From contig NC_081370.1 in assembly GCF_030684315.1 (NCBI RefSeq), positions 34,428,728-34,492,727 on the forward strand: a stretch of 64,000 bases of DNA, written 5' to 3'. A model generated the notes under the pieces. That model was not told the origin of the DNA, did no database searches, and saw only the letters and a program-made list of their open reading frames with translations. Positions 4,180 through 58,240 of the stretch are shown one piece after another. The DNA is from Stegostoma tigrinum. Lineage: Eukaryota. The position numbers and the translations under genes were made by a program. Each line of letters opens with the position of its first letter. Positions within the stretch are counted from its first letter, which is position 1.

Positions 4180-4503
4180 TGTCTCCACCATTAGTAAAAT
4201 ACATAAAAAGTGAACCAGAACTCCCAGAGGTAGGAAAAGAAGCAACCATCATATGTCATGCATATGGCTTCTTTCCAAAGGAAACGTTGTTCATGTGGTT
4301 CAGAAATAATGAGAGAGCTGATGACGCAGGAATCACTTTTACTGAACCTCAGAAAGATGAGCAAACTGGCTTCTTCTACTGTGAAAGTCGATGGAGATTA
4401 TTAATTAAGCCAGAATATCACCAGATGGAATTCAAAGTTGAGGTTCTACATTTCCCAACTTCTCACAAGCCTTCAAGATCTAGTTTCGTCCTTCATCTTG
4501 GAG
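4180..4503 (+). CDS. Gene A (5'-partial), third-last coding exon: C1-set Ig domain, paralogous to gene B exon 8
   Basis: Acceptor ttactacag|TG, donor GGAG|gtatga; 324 nt, phase 1-1. VSPPLVKYIKSEPELPEVGKEATIICHAYGFFPK..WFRN..EFKVEVLH: B-strand Cys, FFP turn and C-strand Trp present; F-strand Cys replaced by Val. Confidence 0.88.
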
Positions 4504-8170: not shown

Positions 8171-8784
8171 TTGAATGCGTGTAAGGTTTATCGGTGGCTA
8201 AGGCGAATAAAATAAAATGAATGCAAGTGAACCAAAGTGAAAATTTAGTAAGGAAGGATGTTGCATCAAAGATTCAATATCTACAATCAGTTTGGCTGGA
8301 ATTAAAAAGCAGCAAAGGGAGTAAAACATTCTGAGAGTTTCTTTTTTACAGACTGTAGTGGTATTATTGGGCATGGTGTAAAAATCAGAAGTTTAAAAAT
8401 ACATGTAACATGTATAATTGTAGTTTAACAGTCAGCTTCAGTTTATGCATAGTCATACAGCACGGAAGCTGACCCTTCAGTGTAACTCATCCATGCTGAC
8501 CAAGTTTCCCAATCTAAACTAGTCTCACTTGCCTGTGTATGGCCTATATTCCTCTCAACCTTTCCTAATCATGTTCCTGTTCAAATGTCTTTTAAATGTT
8601 GTGACTGTACCAATGTCTACTGCCTCCCCTGGCAATTTATTCCACGTAAGATCCACCCTCTGTGTGAAAAAAGGTGCCACTCAGGTTTCTTTTAGATTTA
8701 ACCCCTCTCACCTCAAAAATACACTCCCTACTTTTGAACTCTCCCACCCTAGGGAAAAACTAAATCAACATTAATACTATGGAA

Positions 8785-9015
8785 CACAAATAGAAGTTGC
8801 TGAAAAAGCTCAGAAGGTGTGGCAGCACCTGTGAAGGAAAATCAGTTAACATTTCAAGTCCAGTGACCCTTCCTCAGTTCTGAGGCAGGGTTATTGGACC
8901 TGAAATGTTAACTCTGATTTTTCTTCACAGATGCGACCAGACCTGCTGAGCTCTTCCAGCAACTTCTATTTTCCTTCCTGATTTACAGCATCTATAGTTC
9001 TTTTGGTTTTTATTT
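8785..9015. mobile_element. Fold-back mini element of a second PLE family
   Basis: Inverted arms agaagttgctgaaaaagctcag.. / ..ctgagctcttccagcaacttct around degenerate hammerhead cores. Confidence 0.65.
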
Positions 9016-9019
9016 GATG

Positions 9020-11330: not shown

Positions 11331-11364
11331 GCCTGATGAACAATTTCTTGTTGTTTCCAAACAG

Positions 11365-11676
11365 GAATTCCAATAGTTTCTGACATCGTTGCAGAGCCAG
11401 AAATTTCATCCTATGGAAAACGTCTTGTTCTTAAATGCCATGTAAAAAATTTTTCAGGAAATGTATCCTCTGCCAGATGGCTAATGAATAACAAGTATGT
11501 CTCTAGTGGAGTCACAACCACAGAGCCTCAGAAGGAAGAAAGTGGCTATTATCAGTTATTTTCCAGCATGGAGTTAACGCCAACCGCTTTGGATTATAAT
11601 AAGGAAGTTGTATTCGAACTGATGCATAAAGCCTCACCCAATCCCATTCAAAAGCAGCTGTGTTTGAAGCTTCCAG
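11365..11676 (+). CDS. Gene A, second-last coding exon: C1-set Ig domain, paralogous to gene B exon 9
   Basis: Acceptor ttccaaacag|GA, donor CCAG|gtatgt; 312 nt, phase 1-1. GIPIVSDIVAEPEISSYGKRLVLKCHVKNFSG..ARW..SGVTTTEP..EVVFELMH; F-strand Cys replaced by Phe. Confidence 0.88.
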
Positions 11677-12548: not shown

Positions 12549-12862
12549 GTTTTCCTCCTACTCTGTCGGAAATCAAATGTAACCCAATGAAACCAGAGAA
12601 AAACAAAGTAACAACTTTCACCGTTTCACTGACTGATTATGCACCTCAAGAAATTGAAATTAGGTGGTTTAAAGAAAAGGAACCCTTCATGGGTCAGGCG
12701 GCTCATACTAAGCCTGAAATTGCTGAAAATGGTCTCTTCTCATCTCTAACAAGTATAGAATTTACACCAGTAGAATCTGATAATGGGATAGGAATCAGAT
12801 GTGAGGTTTATCACCCAGAAACACAAGAATTTAAGGAAAAAAATTTGTGTCTGGCATTCTGA
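12549..12862 (+). CDS. Gene A, terminal coding exon: C1-set Ig domain ending in TGA, paralogous to gene B exon 10
   Basis: Acceptor gttttaag|GT. GFPPTLSEIKCNPMKPEK..FTVSLTDYAPQEIEIRWFK..NGLFSSLTSIEFTP..IRCEVYH..CLAF*; B-strand Cys replaced by Val. Confidence 0.88.
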
Positions 12863-13042
12863 CATAAATATAAAGATTTCTTACATCTATTTTGAACACT
12901 AGGTAAATATAGATGGTGCAAGATTTATTTTAAATTGCTCCCACACAACTGGCATTTATCATTCTGCTTTAAACACTTGTTTTGCATAGCTGGTAAATAT
13001 AAAACAAAAAAAAACCAGCTTGAAATGATGAAATGCTTTGAA

Positions 13043-14968: not shown

Positions 14969-15055
14969 GCCTCCCATGAAGCGCTGGTGTTATGTCCCGC
15001 TTTCTATTTATCTGTTTAGGTTTCCTTGGGTTGGTGATGTCATTTTCTGTTCTTT

Positions 15056-22990: not shown

Positions 22991-23063
22991 ATGGGCCCGG
23001 TGAGGAGCTCGCTGCCGCCTCTGGTCCCGGTGTTAGCACTGCTGACCCTGGTACCGCACTCAG
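22991..23063 (+). CDS. Gene B exon 1: signal peptide [24 protein letters not shown]
   Basis: Strong Kozak context gggccATGg, hydrophobic core, phase-1 donor TCAG|gtaaag, located in a CpG-rich island. Confidence 0.85.
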
Positions 23064-32000: not shown

Positions 32001-35000
32001 TGTGTTAATTTGGATGCAAGTTCATTAACATATATTTTAGACACATTCTTCATTTTCTGTTTTTTTGCACTGTCATTTGCAAATTTCAAAATTGTATTTC
32101 TGGTTCCAGAGTACTAATTGCTAATATAATCAGGGCGGCACAGTGGCACAGTGGTTAGCACTGCAGCCTCACAGCGCCAGGGACCTGGGTTCAATTCCCA
32201 CCTCGGGCGACTGTCTGTGTGGAGTTTGCACATTCTCCCTGTGTCTGCGTGGGTTTCCTCTGGGTGCTCCGGTTTCCTCCCACAGTCCAAAGATGTGCAG
32301 GTTAGGTGGATTGGCCATGCTAAATTGCCCGTCGTGTTCAGTGGTGTGTGGGTTATAGGGGGATGGGTCTGGGTGGGATGCTTCAAGGGGCGGTGTGGAC
32401 TTGTTGGGCCAAAGGGCCTGTTTCCACACTGTAGGGAATCTAATTAATCTAATCAAAATTAAGAACATCGGTGGCTCCAATGCCAGCCTCTGAGAAACAC
32501 CACTTCTCACTGTTTGTCTGTCTGATCTGCAACTCCTAATCCATATGTTCTGCTAGCCACTTGGCCACCTGTGAACTTCCTATCTTAACATGAGAACCTT
32601 ATTACTTGTCCTGAAGTTCTGTGGCACTGTTTCCTTTATTGATGTTCGTCAACTGATATATTTATTTAATAGGTGCTCAGCTGTATCTTCACTATGCATA
32701 GATCCAGTCAATGCATTAGTTTTGAAGTATAGTTGCAATTATTAGTGATACTAACATACCTTTTGTATTTTGGTAGCACGACCTACAGTAATAGTGACTT
32801 CAGAAAAAACTGTGGAAGTTGGAACAGGTGGCGAGATGGCTTTAAGTTGTCAGTTAAGTGGATATTTTCCTTGTGAAAGCAATACTGAATGGCTACAGAC
32901 AACCCCAGCACAAGGAAAACTGAGAGTGTTGACTGATGTTTGCATTGCCCCGCCGGTCAAAAACCCTGATGGAACGTGTAACATAAGCACTGAAGTTAGA
33001 TTAGAGCCTGGAGTAGAAGACATTGGCAGCACTTTCACATGCCGTGTCTTTCATAAGTCTTTTACAAAACCATACCAGGTAGAAGCTTTGGTGACTTTGA
33101 AAGGTGAGTTGCAATAATTTTAGCTTTTCTTTATTAAAATACTCAGTCTAAAGCATTTTGGTTAAATTAATTTAACTGTTAACTTTTCTTGTGGACATAA
33201 TCAAATGTGAAGCTTTTGGAATGGATTCGTTTGATACTGACAGGCTAGTGAAATTTTTAACTTCCTTGTATTCTTAAAATTTATTTTTACAAAACATGAA
33301 ATAAAACTCAAGTAACGTCTATAAATCTGAGCAAATTAGATTGCATGTATATTGTGATTAATAACCCTTACTTTACAGTGGTTTTGTGCATGTTATGTGT
33401 TTTAAGTACAGATAGTCCCTGAATTAGAAGACTCATATTTACAAGTGCCATCCCACATGTGGTTTTAATTTTAAAGACCCGACATGTGAACCCTTCCTGT
33501 AACAAAAGCTGCTTTCAATTGCCATCCATTATGTTCCGACTTGCAAGCAATTTGACTTGTGGACTTCAGAATGGAACACATTTGCAGCTGGGGCTTTCCT
33601 GCATTATTTGTGTTCAATCTAATAAATTTGACACCTGTTCCATACTAAATACCTATTTATGCCATACATGTGATTTGATGACTTTTCAGGATTCTTGCAA
33701 AAAGCTTAATTGTACGTTGTTTAATGGATTTTAATTTTCCATTTAATTGCGTTAACAAATCTTTCTGGTGGAAAGGTAGCCAACGATTGTTCCAGTACTT
33801 TGGAATCAATTTTAATGAAGATGTTTAGAGTTTAAAATTAAATATAGTATACAGCACTAAGTGAAGCCAAATGGCTGAACAATAATGTTATTAGTTGTTG
33901 ACTTGCTCGCCGAGCTGGTAAGTTTGTTCACAATTCACCATACTGTGTAACATCATCAGTGTGCCTCCGGTGAAACAACAGTGTTCTGTCACACTTGCCA
34001 TTTGCGTCTTGGTTTGTTGGGGTGGGTGGCATCACTTCCAGATTTTTTTTTTAGTGATTAGTATATGGGGTCCAGCTCGACATGTTTGTTAATGGAGTTC
34101 TGCTTTGAGTGCCAGGCTTCCAGGAATTCTCGTGCATGTCGTTCCTTGGCCACGTTGTCCCAGTCGAGTTAGTGTCCCTCTCTGTCCAAGTGTATCTCAT
34201 TTCAATACACATGAACAAAGAGGAACAGCAGTTCGACTGGGACAGTATTATCCCCCTAGGACCAGCCAAGCAACGACACGCACAAGAATTCCTGGAGGCT
34301 TGATACTCAATCCAGAACTCTGTTAACAAACATGTCGAGCTGGACCCCATGTACCAATCACTAAGAAGCCAATCCGGAAGTGATGCCACCCACCCCAACA
34401 AACCAAGACACAAATAGCAAGTGGGACAGAACACTGATGCTTCACCAGACATGCACTGATGATGTTACCTAGCATGGTGACAAAATGTTTGCAAACAAAC
34501 TTACCAGCTCGGTGAGCAAGTTGACAACCCAAGCTACAAATCTTCTCAAAAACCTTGAATACTGTTCGTATTTATAACCACGTTAACTTTCTCCCATTTT
34601 TATCTACCTTTGCTCATCCTTTTAAGTATATATTTTCTTAGTTTTTTCAACTATGTACTTGTCTAGTTGCCTGTGTTATCTGTCTCACTTGCTGTGGCAG
34701 AGAGTTCCTCACTTCAACTACTTTCTTGACTGAAGAAATTTTATTTATTTTCTCATTCGATTTATTAGTCACTTCCTTTGTACTTGTGGTTCTTAGTTTT
34801 CAACCCTCCTACATGTGAAAATATTGTTTCCATTTCTACCTTGTCCGAACAACTTATAATTTTAAACATCTCTTTAAGGCCACTTGTAAGTATTTGTTTT
34901 TTGAAAGGTGAAGATCCCAACCTATTCAATCTTTTCTCAATTAATGTGATCTCAGTTCTGTTACCATGCTTGTAAACATACTTCACACTTTGAATGGTAC

Positions 35001-38000
35001 TTCTATATCCTTTTTTGTAATAGGCTACCAGAGCTATGCATTCTGCATGCAGCCTGACCAGGTTCCTATACACATTTAACAAGTGTATCACCTCTCAAAC
35101 CAATCCCATGGTTTACCTGACACATTTAATAGTTTTGTTCCCATGCTGCTTTCATTGATTTGTTCACCTATTTCACTGGATCCCTTTGTACTTTCACTGC
35201 ATTTAAAAGAAATAAACTACAGGTGACATTTCTGTATTTTTGTTCAATTGAGTTCATTACGTTTATTGATGTCAGGTAACAATCAGCTGTTCAGGTTTTC
35301 AGATTTGATGTTCTGTTGCATTTTTTTTAGTGTCAGCTAAGCTTACTGTTTTATATCACTTGCAAATTTTGATTTGAAGTTCCTTATTCCTCAGCCTAAA
35401 GCATCAGTTTTCTTGCAAATGCATTCACAAAATGTGAGTGTGCAGGCTGTTTACTGCCCATCCCTTTAAAATGGTGGTGAGCTGCCTTCTGAAATCCCTG
35501 CAGTCCATTTGTTGTAGGTGGCCCCATAATGACTTTAGGAAGGGAGGACCAAGCTTTTGAATCAGTGACATTGAAGTAATGCAAATTATGAGTAACATTG
35601 ATCCTATGTTGATTTTTGTGCAAATGCATTTCCATTAGAAAAGACCTGTTTTCCGAGTATTACAACTGGATTTAAAACAATGAGATGTGCATGTGTAAAA
35701 ATTAGAACCTTGTTTTTGTGCATATTAATTGGATTGCTCAGAACTGAGGTAAGTATTTCTCTATTATACTTCACACAATAATACAGTATTACACTAGTGG
35801 AATGATTAAAATAGCTAACTGTAAGAAATATGTAACTTTTCTTTTGCAGAAGCAGAAATTCATTTGTCCAAAGCTTCAATAATCGGAAGCATTATTGGGA
35901 GCATCATTACTTCTGTTCTTGTACTCGGACTAGGAATTTATTTCTATATGCGATTCTATTATAAAGGTAAAGCCACATTCTGGGTCTTGTGCGCTACTTC
36001 AGACACTTTGGGGGATAAACTGGAGCAAATTGACTCAAAGGAAATAAAATGTGAGGCTGGATGAACACAGCAGGCCAAGCAGCATCTCAGGAGCACAAAA
36101 GCTGACGTTTCGGGCCTGGACCCTTCATCAGAGAGGGGGATGGGGGGAGGGAACTGGAATAAATAGGGAGAGAGGGGGAGGCGGACCGAAGATGGAGAGT
36201 AAAGAAGATAGGTGGCGAGGGTGTAGGTGGGGAGGTAGGGAGGGGATAGGTCAGTCCAGGGAAGACGGACAGGTCAAGGAGGTGGGATGAGGTTAGTAGG
36301 TAGCTGGGGGTGCGGCTTGGGGTGGGAGGAAGGGATGGGTGAGAGGAAGAACCGGTTAGGGAGGCGGAGACAGGTTGGATTGGTTTTGGGATGCAGTGGG
36401 TGGGGGGGAAGAGCTGGGCTGGTTGTGTGGTGCAGTGGGGGGAGGGGATGAACTGGGCTGGTTTAGGGATGCAGTGGGGGAAGGGGAGATTTTGAAACTG
36501 GTGAAGTCCACATTGATACCATATGGCTGCAGGGTTCCCAGGCGGAATATGAGTTGCTGTTCCTGCAACCTTCGGGTGGCATCATTGTGGCAGTGCAGGA
36601 GGCCCATGATGGACATGTCATCAAGAGAATGGGAGGGGGAGTGGAAATGGTTTGCGACTGGGAGGTGCAGTTGTTTGTTGCGAACTGAGCGGAGGTGTTC
36701 TGCAAAGCGGTCCCCAAGCCTCCGCTTGGTTTCCCCAATGTAGAGAAAGCCGCACCGGGTACAGTGGATGCAGTATATCACATTGGCAGATGTGCAGGTG
36801 AACCTCTGCTTAATGTGGAATGTCATCTTGGGGCCTGGGATGGGGGTGAGGGAGGAGGTGTGGGGACAAGTGTAGCATTTCCTGCGGTTGCAGGGGAAGG
36901 TGCCGGGTGTGGTGGGGTTGGAGGGCAGTGTGGAGCGAACAAGGGAGTCACGGAGAGAGTGGTCTCTCCGGAAAACAGACAGGGGTGGGGATGGAAAAAT
37001 GTCTTGGGTGGTGGGGTCGGATTGTAAATGGCGGAAGTGTCGGAGGATAATGCGTTGTATCCGGAGGTTGGTAGGGTGGTGTGTGAGAACGAGGGGGATC
37101 CTCTTGGGGCGGTTGTGGCGGGGGCGGGGTGTGAGGGATGTGTCGCGGGAAATGCGGGAGACGCGGTCAAGGGCGTTCTCAATCACCGTGGGGGGGAAGT
37201 TGCGGTCCTTAAAGAACTTGGACATCTGGGATGTGCGGGAGTGGAATGTCTTATCGTGGGAGCAGATGCGGCGGAGGCGGAGGAATTGGGAATAGGGGAT
37301 GGAATTTTTGCAGGAGGGTGGGTGGGAGGAGGTGTATTCTAGGTAGCTGTGGGAGTCGGTGGGCTTGAAATGGACATCAGTTACAAGCCCACTTCCTACA
37401 GACTAAGGGGGTGGCCATGGGCACCCGCATGGGCCCCAGAATCTGGACTCCATTTTCTCCCCTTTGGTCCAGGAACTCCCCACCTATGTCCGTGACACCA
37501 CCCACGCCCTCCACCTCCTCCAGGACTTCCAATTCCCTGGCCCCCAACACCTCATATTCACCATGGACGTCCAGTCCCTGTACACCTGCATTCCGCATGG
37601 AGATGGCCTCAAGGCCCTCCGCTTCTTCCTGTCCCGCAGGCCCGACCAGGCCCCCTCCACCGACACTCTCATCCGCCTAGCGGAACTCGTCCTCACACTC
37701 AACAACTTCTCTTTTGACTCCTCCCACTTCCTACAGACTAAGGGGGTGGCCATGGGCACCCGCATGGGCCCCAGCTATGCCTGCCTCTTTGTAGGTTACG
37801 TGGAACAGTCCATCTTCCGCACCTACACAGGCCCCAAACCCCACCTCTTCCTCCGGTACATTGATGACTGTATTGGCGCCGCCTCTTGCTCCCCAGAGGA
37901 GCTCGAACAGTTCATCCACTTCACCAACACCTTCCACCCCAACCTTCAGTTCACCTGGGCCATCTCCAGCACATCCCTCACCTTCCTGGACCTCTCAGTC

Positions 38001-41000
38001 TCCATCTCAGGCAACCAGCTTGTAACTGATGTCCATTTCAAGCCCACCGACTCCCACAGCTACCTAGAATACACCTCCTCCCACCCACCCTCCTGCAAAA
38101 ATTCCATCCCCTATTCCCAATTCCTCCGCCTCCGCCGCATCTGCTCCCACGATAAGACATTCCACTCCCGCACATCCCAGATGTCCAAGTTCTTTAAGGA
38201 CCGCAACTTCCCCCCCACGGTGATTGAGAACGCCCTTGACCGCGTCTCCCGCATTTCCCGCGACACATCCCTCACACCCCGCCCCCGCCACAACCGCCCC
38301 AAGAGGATCCCCCTCGTTCTCACACACCACCCTACCAACCTCCGGATACAACGCATTATCCTCCGACACTTCCGCCATTTACAATCCGACCCCACCACCC
38401 AAGACATTTTTCCATCCCCACCCCTGTCTGTTTTCCGGAGAGACCACTCTCTCCGTGACTCCCTTGTTCGCTCCACACTGCCCTCCAACCCCACCACACC
38501 CGGCACCTTCCCCTGCAACCGCAGGAAATGCTACACTTGTCCCCACACCTCCTCCCTCACCCCCATCCCAGGCCCCAAGATGACATTCCACATTAAGCAG
38601 AGGTTCACCTGCACATCTGCCAATGTGATATACTGCATCCACTGTACCCGGTGCGGCTTTCTCTACATTGGGGAAACCAAGCGGAGGCTTGGGGACCGCT
38701 TTGCAGAACACCTCCGCTCAGTTCGCAACAAACAACTGCACCTCCCAGTCGCAAACCATTTCCACTCCCCCTCCCATTCTCTTGATGACATGTCCATCAT
38801 GGGCCTCCTGCACTGCCACAATGATGCCACCCGAAGGTTGCAGGAACAGCAACTCATATTCCGCCTGGGAACCCTGCAGCCATATGGTATCAATGTGGAC
38901 TTCACCAGTTTCAAAATCTCCCCTTCCCCCACTGCATCCCTAAACCAGCCCAGTTCATCCCCTCCCCCCACTGCACCACACAACCAGCCCAGCTCTTCCC
39001 CCCCCACCCACTGCATCCCAAAACCAATCCAACCTGTCTCCGCCTCCCTAACCGGTTCTTCCTCTCACCCATCCCTTCCTCCCACCCCAAGCCGCACCCC
39101 CAGCTACCTACTAACCTCATCCCACCTCCTTGACCTGTCCGTCTTCCCTGGACTGACCTATCCCCTCCCTACCTCCCCACCTACACCCTCTCCACCTATC
39201 TTCTTTACTCTCCATCTTCGGTCCGCCTCCCCCTCTCTCCCTATTTATTCCAGTTCCCTCCCCCCATCCCCCTCTCTGATGAAGGGTCCAGGCCCGAAAC
39301 GTCAGCTTTTGTGCTCCTGAGATGCTGCTTGGCCTGCTGTGTTCATCTAGCCTCACATTTTATTATCTTGGAATCTCCAGCATCTGCAGTTCCCATTATC
39401 TCTGACTCAAAGGAAGGTTGTTTATGGTTTGGGAGGCAGCATTTTGAAAGCTGCTGTTGCAGCAAAGTCATAGATTTAGCCAATGAAATCTCAAACTTGC
39501 TACCCTTTCATTTTTCTGTTTTCACATTATGATAGTCGTTATTAAATGAAAATGATTAGTCTGCCAACAAAGAGTGTTTAATTAAAATGCAAGCTAAAAA
39601 TGAAATGTGTAATTTGGATAGTTTTCTATGTCCTCTGCTTGGTATATTTGTTTTACCTTTCTTAACACCTCATCTAGCTTTTTCTTTGCTGGTACAGAGT
39701 GCTTCTGTTACTCCACCCTAACATTTGCGCTGTCTTACTATACTTTGATCTTTGATCTTGGATCTTGTACTGATGTTGCTGATAGCAATTGCCCAATGCA
39801 TTCTGGAGTTTACAGTCAATGGATTCTCGAATGTTTAAAAGGGAAGGGAAGTTCAAAAGTCCTAATTGCTTGTTTGAAATAATCTACTTTTTAAGAGGAA
39901 GTGAGGATCTTGCTTTCAGTTAGTTAATAATTTTTCCAAAATATAGTTTTTTTTTCTGCTAATGTGAATGGTATCAGATGAGCTGTACTGGTAACATGAG
40001 TTATGTTTTAGAGTTTGGTCCACATTTACTCCATTACAAAAGTAGAAAGCACAACTTCAAGTTTACTTGCAGATCCTTTGACATGGCAAAACCATTCTGT
40101 ATCCTTGAGTGCAGATACGTGATTATCTTTGTCATTTCTCATTTGCTCATTTTTAAAAACAAGTAGTTGTGTTTTATTTTGCAATTTCTTTTCTGTGCCA
40201 TTGTGTGAATTCCATCTCTAGTTCCCTTTTCTGTTGCTCTATTATCCTCCTCATCTGTAAACTTCTAAATATTATTTTGAACTGCAGCATTGTTGCCCAT
40301 GACTCTGTTGAAATTGCACATTTTCAGAGAACATTTTTTAATCGTTTTTTTTGAAATTCTTCTTTGCACTTTGCCTATTTATTTTTGTGGTCTCCTGTTT
40401 ACTGTACAACTACCTTTCCGTAAACTCTAAGTTGCCATAGAAGATGTTTTGCATGCACTTGGAGCAGTGAAATTGTAACTGTGTTCCTCATAAAAATGCC
40501 ATTTCTCACTCTCAGAAAAACACTCCACCCTCCAATAATCACTTCATTCAAACACATGCCACACATTGTGTGAATCTAAGTATGCAAGCAGTTCATTCCA
40601 GTGTTAGTGTAAAGAACAGTTTAGTTAATGGTTAGTAGTTACAAAAGTCTCTGTTCTGACTGAATAATTCCATAAGAGAGTTACTGGTGTTGTAATTTTT
40701 AAGGTGGTTTTTGGAAAACTTCAGTGAACCTTAAATTTGAGAATTAAAACAAATAACAATCAATTTTAGAATCAATTGAGGCAAGTTTTAAAACTGGTAA
40801 GAATTTTTAGGAAGTGCAAAAGATCACATGAAAAAAATCCTACTTGACATTGTTTTTCAATTCCTAGTTGCGCCATATGTGTCAGAAATTCAAAAACCTG
40901 TGAAAGTTATACACCGAGAACCTGCAGAACTTACTTGCCAAGTGTCTGGATTTCAACCTAGTGTTATTACCATTGCCTGGTATTTGAAGAGATTGAAAGA

Positions 41001-44000
41001 TGCTGAAATGAAGTTGATTGCTGAATGGCAGGAAGACAACGTATTCCATTTCCCTTTGAGCAAGGCCAAGAAAATAGGAAAGGCTGAAAAAAAGAATGAA
41101 ACTGATGATTGGAAAGTCAGGGCAGGCAGGATCCAGAAAAGTGGTGATGGAACTTTCAGCATTTCCAGCGTTCTCGAGATTTATCCTGACATTTTTATGG
41201 ACAATGAAGCAGAAATCACATGTAAGGTGATACACCCATCTAACAGTGAAGCCATTTGTAAAAAGATCAAACTCCATGTTGATGGAAGTAAGTTTCTTTT
41301 AATGATTCAATCAAAAGACATAATTCTGTGAAGTAGAATATATGGACCCTAATGTTCTAATTGATCACAATTACAGTGTCCACTGCCATCATGGCAGATG
41401 ATGCAAGTGAGCTTCTAAGAGTGTTGTTTTGTATCAGTCTGTCCTGTCTCTGCCTCCATTCTACCGTATTTGCAATATCATATTCCTATTGCTGGCGTAT
41501 AACTAGAGATGAGGCTGTGACAAAAAATTTTTCTTTTTAAAAAAAAACAGATATTTTTCCCTTTTGTATGAAAGACATCCTGGAATTGTGGAAAAATAGG
41601 GCTGGAATTTAAATCTCTAACTCTTTCCCCAAACAGCTGTTAGCATTTGAAATAAAAGAGATGCTCTAGTGGTACTAATTCAGATAAATAAATACAATCT
41701 AGTGGCTGTAACTGAGATCTAGGATGACCTAGATTGGGACCTAAATATTGAAGTAGCTAGTGAGATGGTTTGTGCATTGGTTTTAATTTTTGAAAACTCA
41801 CTGGATTCAGGGAAAATTCCTTCACATTTGTAAATAGCAAATGTAACTCCCCCAGATGGGCATTTGATGTTTAGGAAGAACACAAAGGTAGGAAAGGAGT
41901 GACTGTTGACAAACATTAAGATTGATAAGTTCCCAGGGCCAGACCAAATTTATCCGAGGTTGCTCCAGGAAGCGAGAAAGGAGGTTGCTAAGCCGCTGGC
42001 GAAGATCTTTGCTTCCTCACTCTCCACGGAAGTCGTACCGGAAGATTGGAGGGAGGCAAATGTTGTTCCTCTTTTCAAGAAAGGGAATAGGGAAATCTCT
42101 GGAAATTACAGACCAGTCAGTCTTATGTCTGTGGTCAGCAAGGTTTTGGAAAGAATTGTGAGGGATAGGATTTATGACTATTTGGAAAAGCATAGTGTGA
42201 TTAAAGGGAGTCAGCATGGCTTTGTGAGGGGCAGGTCATGCCTTCCAAATCTTATTGAGTTCTTTGAGGAAGTCACGAGACAGGCTGACGAGGGTCAAGC
42301 AGTGGATGTGGTGTACATGGACTTCAGCAAAGCATTTGATAAGGTTCCCCACAGCAGGCTCATTCATAAAGTCAGGAGGTATGGGATACAGGGTGATTTG
42401 GCTGTCTGGATTCAGAATTGGTTGGCTGACAGGAGGCAGAGAGTGCTTGTAGATGGTAAGTATTCTGCCTGGAAGTCAGTGCTGAGTGGTGTCCCACAGG
42501 GCTCCGTTCTTGGGCCTCTGCTGTTTGTAGTGTTTATAAATGACTTGGATGAGGAGGTTGAGGGGTGGGTTAGTATGTTTGCTGATTACACAAAGGTTGG
42601 AGGTACCGTTGATAGTATCGAGGGCTATTGCAGGATTCAGCGAGACATTGACAGAATGCAGAGCTGGGCTGAGAAATGGCAGATGGAGTTCACTCTGGAT
42701 AAATGCGAAGTGATGCATTTTGGAAGGTCAAACTTAAATGCTGAATATAGGATTAAAGGCAGGATTCTCGGCAGTGTGGAGGAACAGCGGGATCTTGGTG
42801 TTCAAGTGCATAGCTCCCTCAAAGTTGCCACCCAGGTGGATAAGGTTGTTAAGAAAGCATATGGTGTTTTGGCTTTCATTAACAGGGGGATCGAGTTTAA
42901 GAGCCGCGAGGTTATGCTGCAGCTCTACAAAACCCTGGTGAGACCACACTTGGAATATTGTGTCCGGTTCTGGTTGCCTTATTATAGGACAGATGTGGAG
43001 GCTTTGGAGAGGGTGCAAAGGAGGTTTACCAGGATGCTGCCTGGGCTGGAGGGCTTGTCTTACAAGGAGAGGTTGACTGAGCTTGGACTTTTCTCTCTGG
43101 AGAGAAGGAGGAAGAGAGGTGACCTGATCAAGATGTACAAGGTAATGAGAGGCATGGATAGAGTCGATAGCCAGAGACTTTTCCCCAGGGCAGGATTGAC
43201 TGCCACGAGGGGTCATAGTTTTAAGGTGTTAGAAGGAAGGTATAAAGGAGATGTCAGAGGGAGGTTCTTCACCCAGAGAGTTGTGAGCGCCTGGAATAGT
43301 TTACCAGTGGCAGTCGTGGAAGCAGAGCCATTAGTGACATTTAAGCGACTGCTGGACATGCACATGGACAGCAGTGAATTGAGGGGAATGTAGGTTAGGT
43401 TATTTTATTTTTGGATGAGGATTATTGCACGGCACAACATCGTGGGCCGAAGGGCCTGTACTGTGCTGTACGTTTCTATGTTCTATGTTCTATAGATTAG
43501 AAATAATCTTAGCACAATACATATGAATGACCTAAATTCAGAAAACCAGGATATGGGTACAGATGAGGAACAATGAAGGTAAGAGGTTGCTTGTGGGTAT
43601 TGCGTAGACGTGCACTAACAGTAACCACGTGGTAGGACAGGGTTTCAAGAAAGAACTAATGGAAGGTTGTCAAAACAGTACAGCAATTATTGTGTAGGGA
43701 TTTTAACCTCCTATATAGACTGGAAAAAAATCAAGTGAGAAAATGTAGTCTATAGGAGGAATTCATTGAACGTCTTCAGGATAGTTTCTTCAACCAGTTA
43801 TGTTATGACACCAGTCCGACAGTAGGCTATGCTGCACCTGGTTTTGACCAATGAGATAGGATTAATTATTGATCTCAAAGTGAAAGTTCCCTTGGGTAGC
43901 AGTGGGCAGAATATGATTGTATTTATCATACAGTTTAAGGGAGAGTTTAAACAAGGGCACTTCTGTGGGTATCAATGCAGAGCCTGTGAAAGTGAACTAA

Positions 44001-47000: not shown

Positions 47001-50000
47001 TGCTTCCTACTGCTCCCATGTTGCAAACTGGGCTCTGGGTGACATGATGTTTGTTACGTTTTGCCTTTCCTGAATTTGGAATGGCATTTTTACCATGCCT
47101 CCAAATTAGTACAACTGAAAGACAGACAAGAACTCCAGCATGGGTTAGGATGGAGAGCAGACCACTTGAATGATTTCCAAAGAGCTCTAGAAAGGCTGAA
47201 AATAAATGGTCACAACACTGTTTTGATTGCATGTGTTTTGGTGAAAAATGTATGGCTTTTAAAGAAAAACTAATGTTTAGAAGTTCTGTATAATTAAAAA
47301 TGTCTTTTGTTCTTTTCCCTCTTCAGTTCCTCCTAAGTTGGCTCGCATAATTAAGCCGCCTGTGGTGCTGCACAACAGTTCTGTGATGCTGACTTGTCCA
47401 ATAATTTGTTTCAAGCCACGGCCTGTAAAGATCACATGGTATAAAAATGTGCATGGACAGAAAACCCCTTTGCTGGTTTTAGACAATGCAAATGAAAAAA
47501 ATATTTTTCCGGATAAATATTCCCATTATATGAGAAGATTTAATTATTCTGACTGCACTGTCAGTGTCTACAGCACAATACGTTTTAATGCAACAATCCA
47601 AGAAGAAGATAAAAGTCAGTACTTCTGTGCAGTTGAACACATTGGCTTAACCAATCCAGTAGAGGAACAGGTTCAACTTGATGTAAAAGGTAACACATTG
47701 AACACTTAGTTAAAGACAAAATTTCAGTTTCTCTTAAAATGTGGGATCATATTTCCTCTTTCTCTCAGGGTCATGAGTTGGTGGAATTCTCTTCCACAGT
47801 GGAGGCAAGGTCCTTGAATATTTCTAAGGCAAAGTTACACAGATTCTTGACTGACAAGGGAGTCAAAAGGGTATGGGAATGTGGGGAAAGCAGAGTTGAG
47901 ATCACAACAGATTAGCAATGATCTTAAGAAATGACAGAGCAGATTCTCGGGGCTGATTGGTATACTGTGGCTCCTAATTCATGTTTCTTTTTATCAATGT
48001 GAAGAATTTCAATACTAGAAAACAGCACAAATTTCCATTCTAGGATTAAGCACTTCCAAGTTTTCAGTTGAGAGTTTGTGACCAGCTATTGTAATCTGGC
48101 AATTTCTTAAATTAGTTATCTGTCATGTCCCCTCTGGGTGAAATTATTCAGTGCGTCAGCTTTAGATCCGTGTTCACTAAAAATTGCATTGAGATAACTT
48201 CAAGTTTGCTCATGTAGGATACCTGTTAGACATTAAAATGAGTTACATTAATCCTAACATTTTGAATGTTTTGAAATCTAGTTACCAAGGATGAAAGAAT
48301 AATATGTCGAGTCATGGAGCCACAATTTGATTAAGAAGTACTCTACCTAGCCATCACTGAAAATGAGAGTTCTTCATAACAGGCAATATGTATGTGAATG
48401 TATGTATGAGGTGATGTTCTAACACTTTGTATTTTCCAGCTTTTCCTTCTCTTGATGCCATCCTAAGTGATCCTGTGAACCCTGTAATTGGAGAAATGTT
48501 GACTCTGACCTGCAGAGTGCATTCATTTTATCCTGAAAGTATTACTGTCCACTGGTTGAAAGATGATGTTATAGTGGAATCAAAAACACCTAAAACTGAT
48601 CTAAATTCAAAGCATGAGTTGCACGAATTTATCAGTTCATTTACAATTACTCCAACTGTATCAGACCTACAGAGTAAATATAAATGCCAGGTTGATCACG
48701 AGAGCCTTATGTATCCAAGATTTGCAGAATACATTCCTGAAAATTTAGGTGAGTTTATTCTTATTTAAAAGCATTTCTGCAATATAGAAATGTTTGTTTT
48801 ATTTACAAGTCAACTATATCGGTTTCACATTTCTTAAAAAGTATTCACAGAAATTAATATTGTTTCCCCGGCCAGGACACTTGAATTTAAGAGTTAGTCA
48901 GCTGTTTTTAGTGTGCAGAACAGTCACTGGAATTTAGAAGCATTTTAATGATACAGAATAGTTCGGCCACTTTGACCACCCAAATAGGTTTGTAGCATAA
49001 TTTCACTTTCCTAAAGTTATCAAGAGAGAATTCCAGCTAAGACACAAGTTATACTGATTTGCCATATTACTCATTCTATGGTAAAATTAAATCACTGTCA
49101 TCAAAATGAAATAACGTTTTAATGTTAGTGGTGTATTTTTGTGACATTATGTTCTCTAGATCACTTGTTTATGAATTTTAAACATTGAAAAGCTGCATGT
49201 AAAATATTTCAGGCAAAGAGGAAGGGGTGATAGGACAAAACCGTGTGCAAGAAAGTTTAGTTACATTGTTATACTGGTCATATTAAAGATAGAGCTAGCA
49301 TCACAGAAATGGCAGGGACGAGCGCATTACCTTATTTCTCAAAAACATCAATGAGGTTGTAGGACCACTTACAGCACGATGAATGCACAGGTTCAAGAAG
49401 GCAGCTCGGACTACTTTCTTGGGCAATTGAGAGTTCTTCCTCTCACCCATCCCTTCCTCCCACCTCCAAGCCGCACGTCCATTTCCTGCCTACTAACCTC
49501 ATCCCGCCCCCTTGACCTGTCCGTCCTCCCCGGGGTTAGTGTCATCCAGTTTCAGGTGATGTGCCAGTATCCTGGTGACAGTTCTTAGGATGATTGAGCT
49601 TCTTCCAACATTGTTTCTTTATAAGCTGAGCTATTCTGGTGCTAAAATGTAACTTTTATTTGGAAAGGAAATATTTTTTGTGAGTTTTTGTCATAATAAA
49701 CTAGCCAAGAGAATTGAGTTAACATAATATACTAAGTCTTTTTTGCATATAAATGTAATAGTATTAGTAGCCCACATATTTGTTGCTTTCCAATTACTAA
49801 ATTGAATAAATTTAAAATAGACTGTTGCATAATTTTTGATACTGATGTCTGAAATTAAAACCAGAAAAATGTATTTCTTAATATTTTTCTTGATTTTAGT
49901 GTCCCATCCTACAGTATCTGAAATTACATGCAGTCCTGACATCCCTGAAGTAGAGAAAGAGTTGACTTTAACCTGTACTATAAGTGACTATTATCCAAAT

Positions 50001-53000
50001 GATATTCAAGTTGAATGGTTCAGAAATGAGGTGAGAATTAACAGTAATGTAAGCCATGAAAAAATTGAGGAACAATCATCCTGTAAAGATGGTCTGCACA
50101 GCAAAGTCACCATGGTAACTTTAACACCGAGTACAGATGATCATCAAGCTGAATATAGAGTCGAAGTTTGCCATTCAAAATCTTCAACCAAACCAATTAA
50201 GAAGAACTTCCAGTTAACCCTTAAAGGTGAGTTAAAAGTATTCTGTTTGATTAAATGAAATAAGACTGTAAGACAAAGGAGTAGAAGTAGGCCGTTCACC
50301 CTATTGAGTCTGTTCTACCGTTGCATCAGATTGATGTGATAATCCTCAAATCCACGTTACTGCCTTTGCCCCATAACCCTTAATTCCTTGCTGATTAAAA
50401 TTCTGCCTAACTCAGTCTTGAATATACGTCATGACCAAGATTCAATAGCCCTCTCTGGTAAAGAATTCCACAGAATCGCTGCCCTCGGAAGAAATTGATG
50501 TTTAAAGGTTATGCTCTCCTGTGCTGTGCACTCCCACAAGGTGAAACAGCCTTTGGCATCTGCCCAGTCAAGTCCCATATGATTCTTCAATGTTTTAATA
50601 AGGTCGTCTCTCGTTCTCCTATATTTTAACAATCACAGGTCCAATTTATTTAATCTCTTCTCTTAAGGTAGACCCTCTATACCTGGTATCAGCCCAGTGA
50701 ACCTTTTCTGGATCGTCTCTAATGCAAGTACATCTTTCTTTAGATAAGAAGCACAAAACTGTTCACAGTATCCCAGCAGTGGTCTGACTCATGCTGTGTA
50801 TAGTTTTAGCAAAATCTTCACACTTTCATACTCCATTCCCTTTGAAGTGAAGGCAGACATTCCATTTGCTTTCTCTATTACCCCCAAACTTGGATGCTAA
50901 TTTTTTGGGATTCACGGACAAGGTCTCGCAAAACCCTCTCTGTTCTATAGCTTTCTGCAGTCTTTCTCCATTAAAATAATATTCACTACCTCTATTCCTC
51001 CTGCATAACCTCTTATTTCCCCATATTATATTCCACCTACTAAGTTAGTATCCTACTCGCTTAACTTGTCTATATCCCTCTGCAGACTCTGTTTTCCTCA
51101 CCATTTGCCTTCCCATCAATTTTGTGTGAGCTGCCAGCTTGACTGTAGTATAAACATGTATCTCATCCAAGTCATTAAAATATATTTTAAGTAATTGCGG
51201 CCTCAGCACTTATCCCTGTGGCACACCACTGGTTAGAGGTTGCCATTCTGAAAGTGACCTCTTATCCAATACTGTCTTCTTTTTAGATGGTCAATCCTTT
51301 GTCCGTATTAATATGCCACTTCTAAAATCATGGGCTGTTATTCAGTAGATGTGGTACCTCATCAAATGCCTTCTGAAAGTAAAAATATTTTATACCCACT
51401 GCTTCTGTTTTTTCCTTCTCCTGCTTATTTCTCATCCAATAGTTACACTAAATTTTGTCAGACATGATTTTCCCCATCAGGAAACTGTGTGGACTCTGCT
51501 TGATCGTATTATATATTTTAAATGTTTTGCTATCACATCCTTTATTATAAATGTTTATAATACATGTTCTCAATTATAGATGTGAAGCTAGCTATCTCCT
51601 TCCCTTTCGAAACAAAGTTGTTTTCTAATCCTCTGGGACTTATGAAGAGGTTTAATTGAACTGCACTTGAAATGCTAAAACATTTTAATTGTACCGTTAT
51701 ATATTTCTGTCCCTTTCTTTGTTCTGAATAAGAATAACTGAATTCGTCACAGGTAATTGTTTTTAATTAATGTTATTGTGAAGTTGGTGACATGGTGGTT
51801 AGCACTGCCGCCTCACAGCACCAGGGTTCTGGGTTTGATTCCCTTGTTGGGCGACTGTGCAAACTCCACACTGATATTCTTCCCGTGTCTGCGTGGATTT
51901 CCTCCCACAGAGATGTACGTGGTAATTAATGCTAAATTACCCATAAGTGTCCAGTGATGTGCAGCTTGGTGGATTATCCATGGAAAATGCAGGGTTACAG
52001 AGCTAGGGTAGGGGTGTGGGTCTGAGTAGGCTGATCTTCAGAGGGTCGGTCTGGATTCGGTGGACCGAATAGCCGTTTCCACATTATAGAGATCCTGTGA
52101 TTCCAAGTATCCTAATCATGCAACAGTTAGTCAATGTTAGTAACTTTTTCTGCTTTGCTTTTGGCTTGTGAAGGTGAGCAAAGTATGTATGAACAAGGAA
52201 AGGTTTGCTTACTTCTGACTGGTATGTTTAATGCCCAATATGAAGTGAAAATCTTACCATGACTTCTTATAATGCAATGGCATTGTCATCATTGCCATCA
52301 GGGACGCCAAGAGACAATACCAGACTAACCGTATGAACACATGTCAACTGTGGGCAATATTTATATGATCTAACAGGCTTCAAAGCAAAGTCTAATAGAA
52401 TCGCCGACAACAGTGCATCCCTCCCCGATGAGCTCAATGCATTCTACGCTTGTTTTGAACAGAGGCTCAGTGAAATGATGTCACCTGTCCCAACAGCTTC
52501 AGGTGCACAGGTACGTATAGTCACCACCTCGGGCATCAGATCAGCTTTCTTGAGGATGAACCCTCAGAAAGTGACTGACTGGGATAGAGTCCCTGGCTGT
52601 GCACTCAGATCAGCTTTCTTGAGGATGAACCCTCAGAAAGTGACTGACTGGGATAGAGTCCCTGGCTGTGCACTCAGATCAGCTTTCTTGAGGATGAACC
52701 CTCAGAAAGTGACTGACTGGGATAGAGTCCCTGGCTGTGCACTCAGATCAGCTTTCTTGAGGATGAACCCTCAGAAAGTGACTGACTGGGATAGAGTCCC
52801 TGGCTGTGCACTCAGATCAGCTTTCTTGAGGATGAACCCTCAGAAAGTGACTGACTGGGATAGAGTCCCTGGCTGTGCACTCAGATCAGCTTTCTTGAGG
52901 ATGAACCCTCAGAAAGTGACTGACTGGGATAGAGTCCCTGGCTGTGCACTCAGATCAGCTTTCTTGAGGATGAACCCTCAGAAAGTGACTGACTGGGATA

Positions 53001-56000: not shown

Positions 56001-58240
56001 GGCAGGGAGGAGTGACCTACTTTTGGCTTTGTGGATCTGTTAAATCTTTCATTTTCTCTCTGCATATAGGCTCACCCAAATTTTCAGTGTTCGTGATGGA
56101 GCCGGAGAACCCTTCGTATGGAAAGGACTTATCTGTGTCCTGTTCAGTTTCTGGAATTTCCCATCCAAATGTGACAGTTGAATGGTATAAAGCGTCTCAG
56201 TTAATTCACAATGGAGTCACAAAAACAAAGCCTATACTTACCTCAGAAAACACTTACAAGGTAGATGCTCGTCTGAAATTTTTTGTGACTGCAGAAGACT
56301 TTGAAGGAGAATTATTCCTTCAGTATAAAGACAATGATAAAGGTGATACGTTTAAACGAGATATTCACCTGCCCCTCCAAGGTGAGTGGATCTTGTGCCC
56401 TGATGTTTACATATGTTTAGAACATCCTAATTTGGTTAATAATTTCTGTAAAAACAAAAGACACTGCATCAAAGACACTGCTCTCTATCTTACCAAGTAG
56501 TGAACGAACAGGTTAATAAAGTGTGAAGCTGGATGAACACAGCAGGCCAAGTAGCATCTCAGGAGCACAAAAGCTGACGTTTCGGGCCTAGACCCTTCAT
56601 CAGAGAGGGGGATGGGGAGTGTCCCCGCCTCCCTAACCTGTTCTTCCTTTCACCTATCCCTTCCTCCCACCTCAAGCCGCACCTCCATTTCCTACCTACT
56701 AACTTTATCCCGCCTCCTTGACCTGTCCGTCTTCCCTGGACTGACCTATCCCCTCCCTACCTCCCCACCTATACTCTCCTCTCCACCTATCTTCTTTTCT
56801 CCATCTTCGGTCCGCCTCCCCCTCGCTCCCTATTTATTCCAGAACCCTCTCCCCATCCCCCTCTCTGATGAAGGGTCTAGGCCCGAAACGTCAGCTTTTG
56901 TGCTCCTGAGATGCTGCTTGGCCTGCTGTGTTCATCCAGCTCCACACTTTGTTATCTTGGATTCTCCAGCATCTGCAGTTCCCATTATCACAGCAAACGG
57001 AGAGCCTGTTCAATTGAACAGATTGAAGGACTGTCACCAGCGCATGCTGACAGCAAAGTGCAAGTTTTATTTAAAAAAGGAAATATAATTCGAATAAATC
57101 ATACAAGAAATACAAACAAAGGTTTAGGCAGAAATAAAGGATTAACATAAAAGATGTGAAGATAGAAAACTGGTTTCAAAAAAAAATCTGCACTACTAAT
57201 TTTATTTTGAGAAAAATGAAACTCCGAACTTGTAAAATTATCAGTGTCAGATATAATACTGAGTGGTGACTACCACTTTGTATATTATTCAGTAATTCCT
57301 GATTAAAAATGGATGAAAATGTTGGCTTGTGAGAAGTTTTTTATACATTCATTGGATGTGGGTGCCAATGCATCTGTTAACCCATCTGTAATTGCCCAGC
57401 AGCCAGTTGAGAGTTAACCACGCTGCTGTGGGTCTGGAGTCACATGTAGGCTGGACTGGGTAAGGTAGGGATGACAGAAGGAGGAAAGAATGGTGGATAA
57501 TTAGCTCAGCATATGGGATGACAGTGATTTATGTGCAGATTAGCAAAGATTACACCAGTGCAGTCTGTGGAGGGGTGCCAGCATCTTCCAGATTTCCCTA
57601 TTAGACATGCGTGGACATCAGGAATTGCTGACATTTTATGTGTGACAGTGAGCAACAACATCCTTACTTATTATTACAACATAAGCTATTGTTTGAAGAC
57701 AGAGGCATTTGCTTTATCAGATCAATGGAAGTTGCTTAGTACGAGTTGAAACTAGCTTTTCTATATACTTGGATTGTAAACATATGATACTACTTAACAT
57801 AACTATTTAACTTGAGCAGTTACTAAAAAATCATTTAAGACTTTAATAACATAAATATAAATTTATTTAAATGGTCTCTGGTTACAGTTGGAATCTTTGA
57901 AAACTTACATTTTGTTTTGGCATTTCTCATAGCTGTGACTCCTGAAGTGTCAGAAATAGAATGTCAACCTGCTTATCCCAGAAAGGGTGAAAGGGCTATT
58001 CTTTATTGCAAGATCGACCATTTTTGTCCCGTGGATATACTGGTTGTTTGGAGCAAGGGATGGACAGAATGCAAGGATGAGAAAAACACAGAAACGCCCA
58101 AAATCAATGAGAAGGGGCTTTACTCTACAGTGACACATTTGCCTATTGACGTAGTTGAAGGCAGAACAGAGTACATTTGCGAAGTTCGGCACCTTAAAAC
58201 TAATGATATCGTAGAGAAGACATACGTTCTGCACGTTTAG
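22991..58240 (+). CDS. NCR3LG1: Gene B, spliced: B7-H6/NCR3LG1-like type I membrane protein with six post-TM C1-set Ig domains, 969 aa; join(22991..23063,30414..30767,32777..33103,35850..35966,40868..41287,47327..47689,48440..48748,49900..50226,56070..56381,57933..58240)
   Basis: All nine introns are GT-AG and phase 1. The CDS totals 2910 nt with no internal stop. V and C1 motifs resemble human B7-H6 as recalled (G.ASL..AGEYRCEV..P.KA.GTV.LEV; PTIKNMDGTFNVTS..ED.G..Y.C.V.H.S). The symbol denotes likeness; orthology is unproven. Confidence 0.75.
23753..25063. mobile_element. Fold-back Penelope-like element in gene B intron 1 (- arm to about 24597, + arm after)
   Basis: GIY-YIG C-terminal coding remnant on the - strand, complete 3' ends at both extremities, internal ~40-bp G-rich tandem units. 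Confidence 0.88.
26080..26965 (-). mobile_element. CR1 fragment containing a mini fold-back PLE (26522-26755)
   Basis: Inverted CR1 3' region; 11-bp TSD cttcttcacta at 26511-26521 and 26756-26766. Confidence 0.75.
27199..27383. mobile_element. Mini fold-back PLE with 13-bp TSD
   Basis: TSD agttcattatgta at 27186-27198 and 27384-27396; inverted arms agataacaag..gaaagctgacgttt / aaacgtcagctttc..cttgttatct. Confidence 0.82.
27535..29685 (+). mobile_element. CR1 LINE interrupted by a PLE 3' portion (about 27704-28615)
   Basis: [16 protein letters not shown] before the insert and VPQGSVLG after it; the insert encodes a GIY-YIG motif (LYIGETK). Confidence 0.85.
30414..30767 (+). CDS. Gene B exon 2: V-set Ig domain (B7 family)
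   Basis: Branch point cactaac, acceptor tctcag|AA, donor ATAG|gtaaaa; 354 nt. [37 protein letters not shown]. Confidence 0.92.
32133..32455 (+). mobile_element. HE1-type tRNA-derived SINE, well preserved
   Basis: A box TGGCACAGTGG, B box GGTTCAATTCC, CR1-derived 3' end aagggcctgtttccacactgtaggga, (taatc)n tail. Confidence 0.9.
32777..33103 (+). CDS. Gene B exon 3: extracellular C1-set Ig domain (B7-H6/tapasin type)
   Basis: Acceptor tttggtag|CA, donor AAAG|gtgagt; 327 nt. [38 protein letters not shown]. Confidence 0.92.
33890..34560. mobile_element. Fold-back PLE of the same family as 14851-15055
   Basis: Inverted arms gttgacttgctcgccgagctggtaagtttg / caaacttaccagctcggtgagcaagttgacaac; endonuclease-end remnant (HAQEFLEA); degenerate hammerhead near 34455-34495. 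Confidence 0.75.
35850..35966 (+). CDS. Gene B exon 4: transmembrane helix
   Basis: Acceptor ttttcttttgcag|AA, donor AAAG|gtaaag; 117 nt, phase 1-1. [39 protein letters not shown]: about 25 uncharged residues followed by aromatic and basic residues. Confidence 0.88.
37464..39320 (+). CDS. PLE reverse transcriptase plus GIY-YIG endonuclease, 5'-truncated, no internal stops
   Basis: [27 protein letters not shown], CxxC motifs, [25 protein letters not shown]. Confidence 0.85.
   Translation: MVQELPTYVRDTTHALHLLQDFQFPGPQHLIFTMDVQSLYTCIPHGDGLKALRFFLSRRPDQAPSTDTLIRLAELVLTLNNFSFDSSHFLQTKGVAMGTRMGPSYACLFVGYVEQSIFRTYTGPKPHLFLRYIDDCIGAASCSPEELEQFIHFTNTFHPNLQFTWAISSTSLTFLDLSVSISGNQLVTDVHFKPTDSHSYLEYTSSHPPSCKNSIPYSQFLRLRRICSHDKTFHSRTSQMSKFFKDRNFPPTVIENALDRVSRISRDTSLTPRPRHNRPKRIPLVLTHHPTNLRIQRIILRHFRHLQSDPTTQDIFPSPPLSVFRRDHSLRDSLVRSTLPSNPTTPGTFPCNRRKCYTCPHTSSLTPIPGPKMTFHIKQRFTCTSANVIYCIHCTRCGFLYIGETKRRLGDRFAEHLRSVRNKQLHLPVANHFHSPSHSLDDMSIMGLLHCHNDATRRLQEQQLIFRLGTLQPYGINVDFTSFKISPSPTASLNQPSSSPPPTAPHNQPSSSPPTHCIPKPIQPVSASLTGSSSHPSLPPTPSRTPSYLLTSSHLLDLSVFPGLTYPLPTSPPTPSPPIFFTLHLRSASPSLPIYSSSLPPSPSLMKGPGPKRQLLCS
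39274..39305 (+). ncRNA. Minimal hammerhead ribozyme motif of the PLE 3' repeat (representative copy)
   Basis: CU CUGAUGA A GGGU ccag GCCC GAAAC GUC AG; related copies near 2955, 24934, 28522, 56865, 63564 (+) and 23852, 36102, 56574 (-). Confidence 0.65.
40868..41287 (+). CDS. Gene B exon 5: post-TM C1-set domain 1, with a long charged insertion
   Basis: Acceptor ttcctag|TT, donor GGAA|gtaagt; 420 nt. [32 protein letters not shown]. Confidence 0.9.
41906..43494 (+). mobile_element. Young 5'-truncated CR1 LINE with a 495-aa open RT frame
   Basis: [42 protein letters not shown] (catalytic DD altered); (ttctatg)n tail. Confidence 0.92.
44205..44490 (+). mobile_element. 3' fragment of a Rex1/Babar-like LINE
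   Basis: Matches about 55045-55375; ends gtgacaataataaatcaaatcaaat. Confidence 0.7.
44968..45328 (+). mobile_element. HE1-type SINE
   Basis: Homologous to 32133-32455; inserted into the old CR1. Confidence 0.85.
47327..47689 (+). CDS. Gene B exon 6: post-TM C1-set domain 2
   Basis: Acceptor ccctcttcag|TT, donor AAAG|gtaaca; 363 nt. [24 protein letters not shown]. Confidence 0.9.
48440..48748 (+). CDS. Gene B exon 7: post-TM C1-set domain 3
   Basis: Acceptor attttccag|CT, donor TTAG|gtgagt; 309 nt. [27 protein letters not shown]. Confidence 0.92.
49900..50226 (+). CDS. Gene B exon 8: post-TM C1-set domain 4 (F-strand Cys replaced by Val)
   Basis: Acceptor gattttag|TG, donor AAAG|gtgagt; 327 nt. 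[27 protein letters not shown]. Confidence 0.9.
50260..51600 (-). mobile_element. Degraded CR1 LINE
   Basis: Inverted CR1 3' tail at 50260-50400 and inverted RT remnants (tatccctgtggcacaccact). Confidence 0.7.
51785..52105 (+). mobile_element. HE1-type SINE, degenerate
   Basis: gtggttagcactgccgcctcacagcaccaggg.. head and CR1-like tail. Confidence 0.75.
52290..55378 (+). mobile_element. Degraded Rex1/Babar-like LINE
   Basis: [26 protein letters not shown] and KFADDT remnants with frameshifts; tail catgtgacaacaataaatcaaatca. Clade assignment is from recalled motifs. Confidence 0.7.
52538..54055 (+). repeat. Perfect tandem array of 22 x 69 bp
   Basis: Unit agatcagctttcttgaggatgaaccctcagaaagtgactgactgggatagagtccctggctgtgcactc; 1518 = 22 x 69; bounded by microhomology tcagatc. 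Confidence 0.97.
56070..56381 (+). CDS. Gene B exon 9: post-TM C1-like domain 5 (F-strand Cys replaced by Leu)
   Basis: Acceptor tgcatatag|GC, donor CAAG|gtgagt; 312 nt. [32 protein letters not shown]. Confidence 0.88.
56515..56990. mobile_element. Fold-back PLE 3' end in gene B intron 9
   Basis: 56515-56619 is the reverse complement of about 56848-56953. Confidence 0.85.
57933..58240 (+). CDS. Gene B exon 10: post-TM C1-set domain 6 and stop codon
   Basis: Acceptor tttctcatag|[42 protein letters not shown]. Confidence 0.9.

Follow-up and report, generated by a model that had tools for sequence, protein, structure and literature searches.

The constant domains of antibodies, T-cell receptors and MHC molecules belong to the C1 set, and are viewed as disulfide-pinned modules of the secretory side. 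Absence of the canonical Ig cysteines, as in the N domains of CD2 and CEACAM, is ordinary variation within the Ig superfamily (IgSF). The tail of human B7-H6 (NCR3LG1) is Gag-derived, and the Ig domains of titin and obscurin are I-set domains of soluble or sarcomeric proteins. Human B7-H6 is described as a type I protein whose V-C ectodomain binds NKp30 (PMC6514059); the shark proteins reported here have a similar V-C ectodomain and, unlike B7-H6, carry six C1-set domains behind the transmembrane segment (TM). Butyrophilins, as is likely for the shark family, join a V-C-TM ectodomain to a folded cytosolic domain, in their case B30.2, which senses metabolites and signals outward (PMC12841164). 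The shark proteins differ from them in having neither B30.2 nor heptad coil, in a first post-TM C1 domain separated from the TM helix by just a few residues, and in a tail made of Ig C1 domains. Tandem Ig folds with variable cysteines also occur in the cytosol in titin and obscurin arrays (in titin, cysteine patterns vary and the B- and F-strand cysteines may face each other in the core; PMC6922384), but the post-TM domains of the shark family have C1-set scores and belong to a type I immune ligand. Long arrays with a V domain, many C1 domains and a TM are also present in shark UrIg2 and Ig heavy chains (PMC12227049), in which the C1 domains precede the TM.

Two neighbouring genes were recognised on the forward strand (+) of the window, i.e., the whole 64,000-nucleotide stretch analysed here, which is shark DNA (exon 49900..50226 was 100% identical to Stegostoma tigrinum LOC125459500, P0001). 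The downstream gene, gene B, joined ten exons into a 969-residue protein identical letter for letter to P0001, with phase-1 junctions and in the order leader with predicted signal peptide (22991..23063), V-set domain (30414..30767, Pfam), C1 domain (32777..33103, Pfam and orthologue alignment), TM exon (35850..35966) and six C1-set domains, D1 (40868..41287, C1-like with a long insertion), D2 (47327..47689), D3 (48440..48748), D4 (49900..50226), D5 (56070..56381) and D6 with the stop codon (57933..58240, Pfam and splice check). Upstream of it, the window held the last three exons of a paralogue, gene A, assigned by profile and orthology to D4 (4180..4503), D5 (11365..11676) and D6 with the stop codon (12549..12862). 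These matched D4, D5 and D6 of the whale-shark protein P0014, which has the same eight-domain layout, at 88-93% identity; the TM of gene A lies outside the window, and its domains are called post-TM through orthology to P0014 alone. All nine post-TM domains of the two genes scored above the Pfam C1-set cut-off. When the window was searched in translation with the 11 domains, no extra domain exons emerged, and no flanking genes were recognised within the 64 kb. The reading that we favour, to which we give as a whole a probability of about 0.7, is that the two genes form a tandem pair encoding B7-H6-like type I ligands with a cytosolic C1 chain that tolerates the loss of cysteines.

The initial annotation had reported that five of the nine post-TM domains lack one canonical cysteine, and all five losses were located in the sequence. 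In gene A, the F-strand cysteine was replaced by Val in D4 (GTT, 4437) and by Phe in D5 (TTC, 11613), and the B-strand cysteine by Val in D6 (GTT, 12623); in gene B, the F-strand cysteine was replaced by Val in D4 (GTC, 50160) and by Leu in D5 (CTT, 56318). Both cysteines were present in D1, D2, D3 and D6 of gene B and, as had been claimed, in its V-set and pre-TM C1 domains. The C-strand Trp was likewise retained as stated (8/8 gene B and 3/3 gene A domains), so that the C1-set hallmark of a B-F cysteine pair with this Trp was complete in four of the nine post-TM domains, the other five having the Trp without the pair. The frames proved intact, gene B joining without internal stop over canonical splice sites (AG acceptor or ATG start in 13/13 exons, GT donor in every internal exon). 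Replacements had been described as always hydrophobic, which was true of the five window sites (V, F, L) but did not extend to the orthologues: in D5, 8 of 12 gene B orthologues lacked both cysteines and displayed T, Y, H or Q at the B-strand position. The losses had also been taken as independent support for the topology; the window numbers (0/2 pre-TM vs 5/9 post-TM domains) were within chance (one-sided Fisher p=0.27), and the five losses amount to about three events because those of D4 and D5 are common to both paralogues.

Cysteine retention was strongly dependent on domain position. Among 14 close homologues from chimaera, sharks and rays, both cysteines were found in V and C1 of 14/14, in D1 of 12/14, D2 of 13/14, D3 of 14/14 and D6 of 13/14, but in D4 of 0/14 and in D5 of 0/13; gene B orthologues kept the pair in 12/13 for D1 and 13/13 for D6. 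The losses of D4 and D5 are thus ancient and common to chimaera, and the species-specific decay that the orthologue check had been meant to detect is excluded. In a 44-member alignment that reached bichir, coelacanth, lungfish and amphibians (D5 F-strand column 847), the pair was retained in C1 of 44/44, D2 of 40/42 and D3 of 44/44, compared with 12/42 for D1, 1/38 for D4, 5/30 for D5 and 14/29 for D6. D2 and D3 therefore hold the pair as tightly as the ectodomain, which runs against the earlier suggestion of a disulfide that can be dispensed with throughout the tail: whether a cysteine is lost depends on the domain position. The accompanying claim of a fold under selection fared better at the level of sequence, the Cys-less D4 and D5 appearing to evolve no faster than intact domains (mean pairwise identity 0.61 and 0.57, vs 0.62 for D3 and 0.61 for V; C1 0.72, D1 0.49). 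The predicted structure of D5 had a pLDDT of 95, and its nearest structures, with Z up to 13.4 and an rmsd of 2.2 over 95 residues, were MHC, Ig-constant, beta2-microglobulin and CD276 domains, while a fold search with the full-length model returned generic multi-Ig matches alone. An alternative disulfide through the cysteine of the D4 'EVCH' motif was considered and rejected, that residue being Cys in 8/13 orthologues and Leu in gene A.

The contrast across the TM was examined in the wider family, starting from a family profile search (best 150 of 3,844 proteins at E<=0.001). Domain hits were obtained in 163 proteins, of which 35 were left out for TM calls other than exactly one and 7 for having no scored post-TM domain, and 121 were kept; domains were scored at >=25 bits with a span over both cysteine columns. 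In the 91 proteins of exact V-C1-TM layout, drawn from this best-match sample, both cysteines were present in 91/91 pre-TM C1 domains vs 212/405 post-TM domains, so that about half of the post-TM C1 domains across sharks, lungfish and amphibians lack a disulfide cysteine. Over all 121 proteins the counts were 128/138 pre-TM vs 292/525 post-TM, the ten pre-TM exceptions lying in eight related proteins outside the V-C1-TM set. Cysteine loss ahead of the TM does therefore happen in relatives, and the initial statement that loss is confined to post-TM domains holds as a family-wide concentration behind the TM, not as a strict rule. Kinship was allowed for with FastTree trees built without the two cysteine columns: 0 changes of cysteine state over a length of 54.6 were obtained pre-TM vs 46 over 246 post-TM, whereas 10.2 pre-TM changes were expected at the post-TM rate (P about 4e-5), keeping in mind that trees of short domains are noisy and that the 46 changes may be inflated. 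As controls, two proteins of the UrIg2 and Ig heavy-chain type, whose long C1 arrays precede a C-terminal TM, kept both cysteines in 20/20 domains. An odd number of cysteines per domain did not discriminate (51/91 pre-TM vs 216/405 post-TM), but sporadic extra-cysteine columns in 13 orthologues did (2/224 ectodomain vs 40/673 post-TM positions, p=0.0008; the D5 column used in this count was off by one and holds no cysteine in these 13).

Features other than cysteines also pointed to a single passage through the membrane, and we infer a type I topology. Past the leader, gene B displayed one hydropathy peak, the sole one above 1.5, coinciding with a modelled helix (residues 264-288) directly followed by D1. 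Among the 91 proteins, N-glycosylation sequons were in excess ahead of the TM (279 observed vs 166 expected, 1.68) and near expectation behind it (345 vs 321, 1.07), the excess being larger pre-TM than post-TM in 73/91, and net charge was more positive post-TM than pre-TM in 72/91 proteins and less so in 8. These features weigh against an extracellular or lumenal location of the post-TM domains, inverted or re-entrant, under which the cysteine losses would be ordinary IgSF variation. Other known C1-set domains lie on the secretory side (PMC10751288), the ten of 138 related pre-TM domains without a cysteine fit such a location, and so does the retention of both cysteines in about half of the post-TM domains. 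With a leader, a B7-H6-like ectodomain enriched in sequons, a single TM followed by positive residues, post-TM sequons at chance level and 0 vs 46 cysteine changes, we consider it highly unlikely. The contrasts of 91/91 vs 212/405 domains and 0 vs 46 changes, the pre-TM sequons and the ancient D4 and D5 losses together make a cytosolic position of the post-TM C1 chain likely, and the Cys-poor domains are then likely a normally extracellular fold at work inside the cell.

Continuity of the ectodomain and tail in one product was evaluated against the possibility that the post-TM exons are a separate gene fused by annotation, or are decaying. The TM-D1 intron is long (4.9 kb) and houses a large inverted repeat element, and several database matches begin at post-TM domains without a TM, as a fusion would predict. 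Conversely, residues K290-V291-P293 at the junction were invariant in 14 homologues, and the 949-residue P0013 was encoded in its entirety on a single assembled contig of 3,886 nt, consistent with a spliced mRNA, given that the gene itself extends over 35 kb. Domain order was the same in orthologues from chimaera to rays, the frames were intact, and each post-TM domain was 42-57% identical to its chimaera counterpart. In contigs of relatives from three sets guessed to be RNA, RNA-like contigs joined D1-D2 and D3-D4, the TM-D1 joint not being among the joints listed; one of them extended 837 nt ahead of D1, a length comparable to TM, C1 and V (798 nt) plus leader, with its upstream part not shown mapped. 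Fusion or decay thus appears extremely improbable.

The tight retention of D2 and D3 cysteines would also be expected if the TM exon, in phase 1-1 and therefore open to in-frame skipping, were left out of some transcripts, yielding a secreted V-C1-D1-D6 form in which the D2 and D3 disulfides are real, next to a membrane form with a cytosolic tail. The TM segment was absent from five examined gene models, of which P0171 and P0192 are isoforms of TM-bearing proteins that lack exactly this segment, the others being P0030, P0039 and P0066, and a D2 sequon was retained in 11/13 gene B orthologues (its Asn in just 19/44 members of the wider family). TM-less entries are, however, database gene models in which a short exon may have been missed, post-TM sequons are at chance level overall, and a secreted form would equally expose D1, D4, D5 and D6, which lose cysteines freely. 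We regard such dual use as distinctly unlikely and retain the cytosolic reading, under which the D2 and D3 cysteines would most simply be kept as buried packing residues, by analogy with titin Ig domains.

The assignment to B7-H6 was based on sequence searches. Human B7-H6 was the best PDB sequence match of the ectodomain of P0014, the gene A orthologue (E 2.5e-32; 115 bits vs 64 for CD276), and came first with the family profile (E 1.7e-57; 198 vs 162 bits for CD276), outranking CD276, TAPBPR, SIRP and PD-L1 in both cases. The V domain of gene B taken alone matched B7-H6 weakly (E 0.003) and below CEACAM matches. The predicted layout, type I with a distal IgV and a proximal IgC domain, is that of B7-H6. 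The family is B7-H6-like and, as judged from a one-way search, probably belongs to B7-H6. The 30 proteins whose names were looked up among the best 150 matches came from chimaera, sharks, rays, bichirs, coelacanth, lungfish, caecilian, newt, frogs including Xenopus laevis and one lizard; a sturgeon protein, in which two TMs were called, was also present, whereas these 30 included no teleost, bird or mammal. Most were annotated as 'uncharacterized', and one frog member was named NCR3LG1 by its source. No shorter relatives, amniote B7-H6 included, were obtained at E<=1e-20 in a search covering 30-302 aa. The hydrophobic segment of gene B had no charged residue, and no ITIM-like match was shared among the four proteins tested, nor was any ITAM found in them, so that the ITIM or charged TM of SIRP-type paired receptors was not encountered. 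B30.2 (PRY/SPRY) was absent from the Pfam hits of P0001, whose whole tail consists of six Ig domains.

In the mechanism that we propose, the V-C1 ectodomain would enter the ER, where it would be glycosylated and oxidised; like human B7-H6, it would probably engage a receptor of the NKp30 type. The six C1 domains would fold in the cytosol on their hydrophobic core, where the canonical disulfide would not be expected to form; D1, D4, D5 and D6 would tolerate the loss of cysteines, several positions having lost one long ago. The order and identity of each position are fixed across the sampled lineages, which suggests specific partners per domain position. By analogy with butyrophilin B30.2, the tail could be a docking or sensing chain coupling the cell interior to the display or clustering of an NK-cell ligand, a role that we advance tentatively and with some doubt. 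Among the alternatives, the one that we favour most, ahead of a secreted isoform without the TM, an extracellular location of the tail and a fusion made by annotation, in that order, is that the cytosolic chain is a passive spacer or cytoskeletal tether without sensing, like titin or filamin repeats. The scored domain number varied from 1 to 8 among the 91 proteins, a shared tyrosine motif was absent in the four proteins tested, and titin Ig domains have variable cysteines in the cytosol (PMC6922384), all of which would suit a tether. The distinct sequence identity and order of each position from chimaera to amphibians fit position-specific partners better, although a tether remains compatible with them, and we hold it to be rather unlikely. 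The docking or sensing role could be taken further, to an unrecognised B7 class spread over jawed vertebrates in which a cytosolic, disulfide-free C1-set tail is an inside-out sensor of stress or pathogens that switches the display of the NK ligand; this bolder version is speculative and unlikely to hold in full.

Extra cytoplasmic Ig domains have reportedly been remarked on for amphibian B7H6, so that the architecture may already be in print. As for the loss of cysteines position by position and its age, we know of no prior account. A literature search whose scope did not include Flajnik et al. 2012 or Ohta and Flajnik 2015 found no account of C1 domains located after a TM. A family that seemingly uses the C1 fold in the cytosol, in lineages from chimaeras to amphibians plus one lizard, is relevant to the origin of this fold and to the settings in which it can function, and an ancestral B7-H6 with a large folded tail is also suggested. 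Domains with the pair kept, one cysteine lost or both lost, at fixed positions, form a natural series that allows a direct test of the folding role of the Ig disulfide and may reveal substitutions that stabilise constant domains under reducing conditions; the initial annotation had put the Cys-less domains forward as candidate intrabody scaffolds, a use that would require them to be stable without the disulfide. Should the inside-out sensor reading be true, the family would represent the first natural cytosolic use of the antibody and MHC constant fold, with D4 and D5 as constant domains already proof against reduction.

The pre-TM C1 domain of gene B (32777-33103) possessed five cysteines, the canonical pair and three extra ones invariant in 13/13 gene B orthologues; judging from this odd number, a covalent dimer could be permitted.

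Paralogues and relatives displayed further variation. Leaders of genes A and B were alike within a lineage despite an identity of about 30% between the proteins: 23 of the first 25 residues were the same in zebra-shark B and whale-shark A, and the two horn-shark leaders were also close (P0001, P0014, P0005 and P0018 compared), a pattern that suggests leader-exon gene conversion and perhaps shared regulation. A third paralogue type (P0042, P0067, P0087, P0109) had V-C1-TM followed by repeated D1-like domains without either cysteine, of which the horn-shark P0042 had seven scored copies. Frog proteins such as P0046, P0073 and P0080 encompassed two or three pre-TM domains and long post-TM arrays alternating between Cys-free and Cys-paired domains, and are possibly a second subfamily or of independent origin. 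In P0125 from Xenopus laevis, V-C1-TM-D1 was followed by a 390-residue tail that did not score as Ig, and tails appear from sequence to have been swapped in the family.

Within the locus, the TM-D1 intron (36032-39375) harbored a large and apparently recent inverted duplication, with 987-nt arms 100% complementary and 377-nt arms 98% complementary, which contained a 637-residue retroelement-like frame that we take to be Penelope-like. The D4-D5 intron (52536-54060) held 22 perfect copies of a 69-bp unit within a LINE-like open frame, either a recent expansion or an assembly artefact. A donor-like GT directly followed the stop codon of gene B (58238-58246) and, with several bony-vertebrate relatives having domains beyond D6, may be what remains of an array that was once longer.
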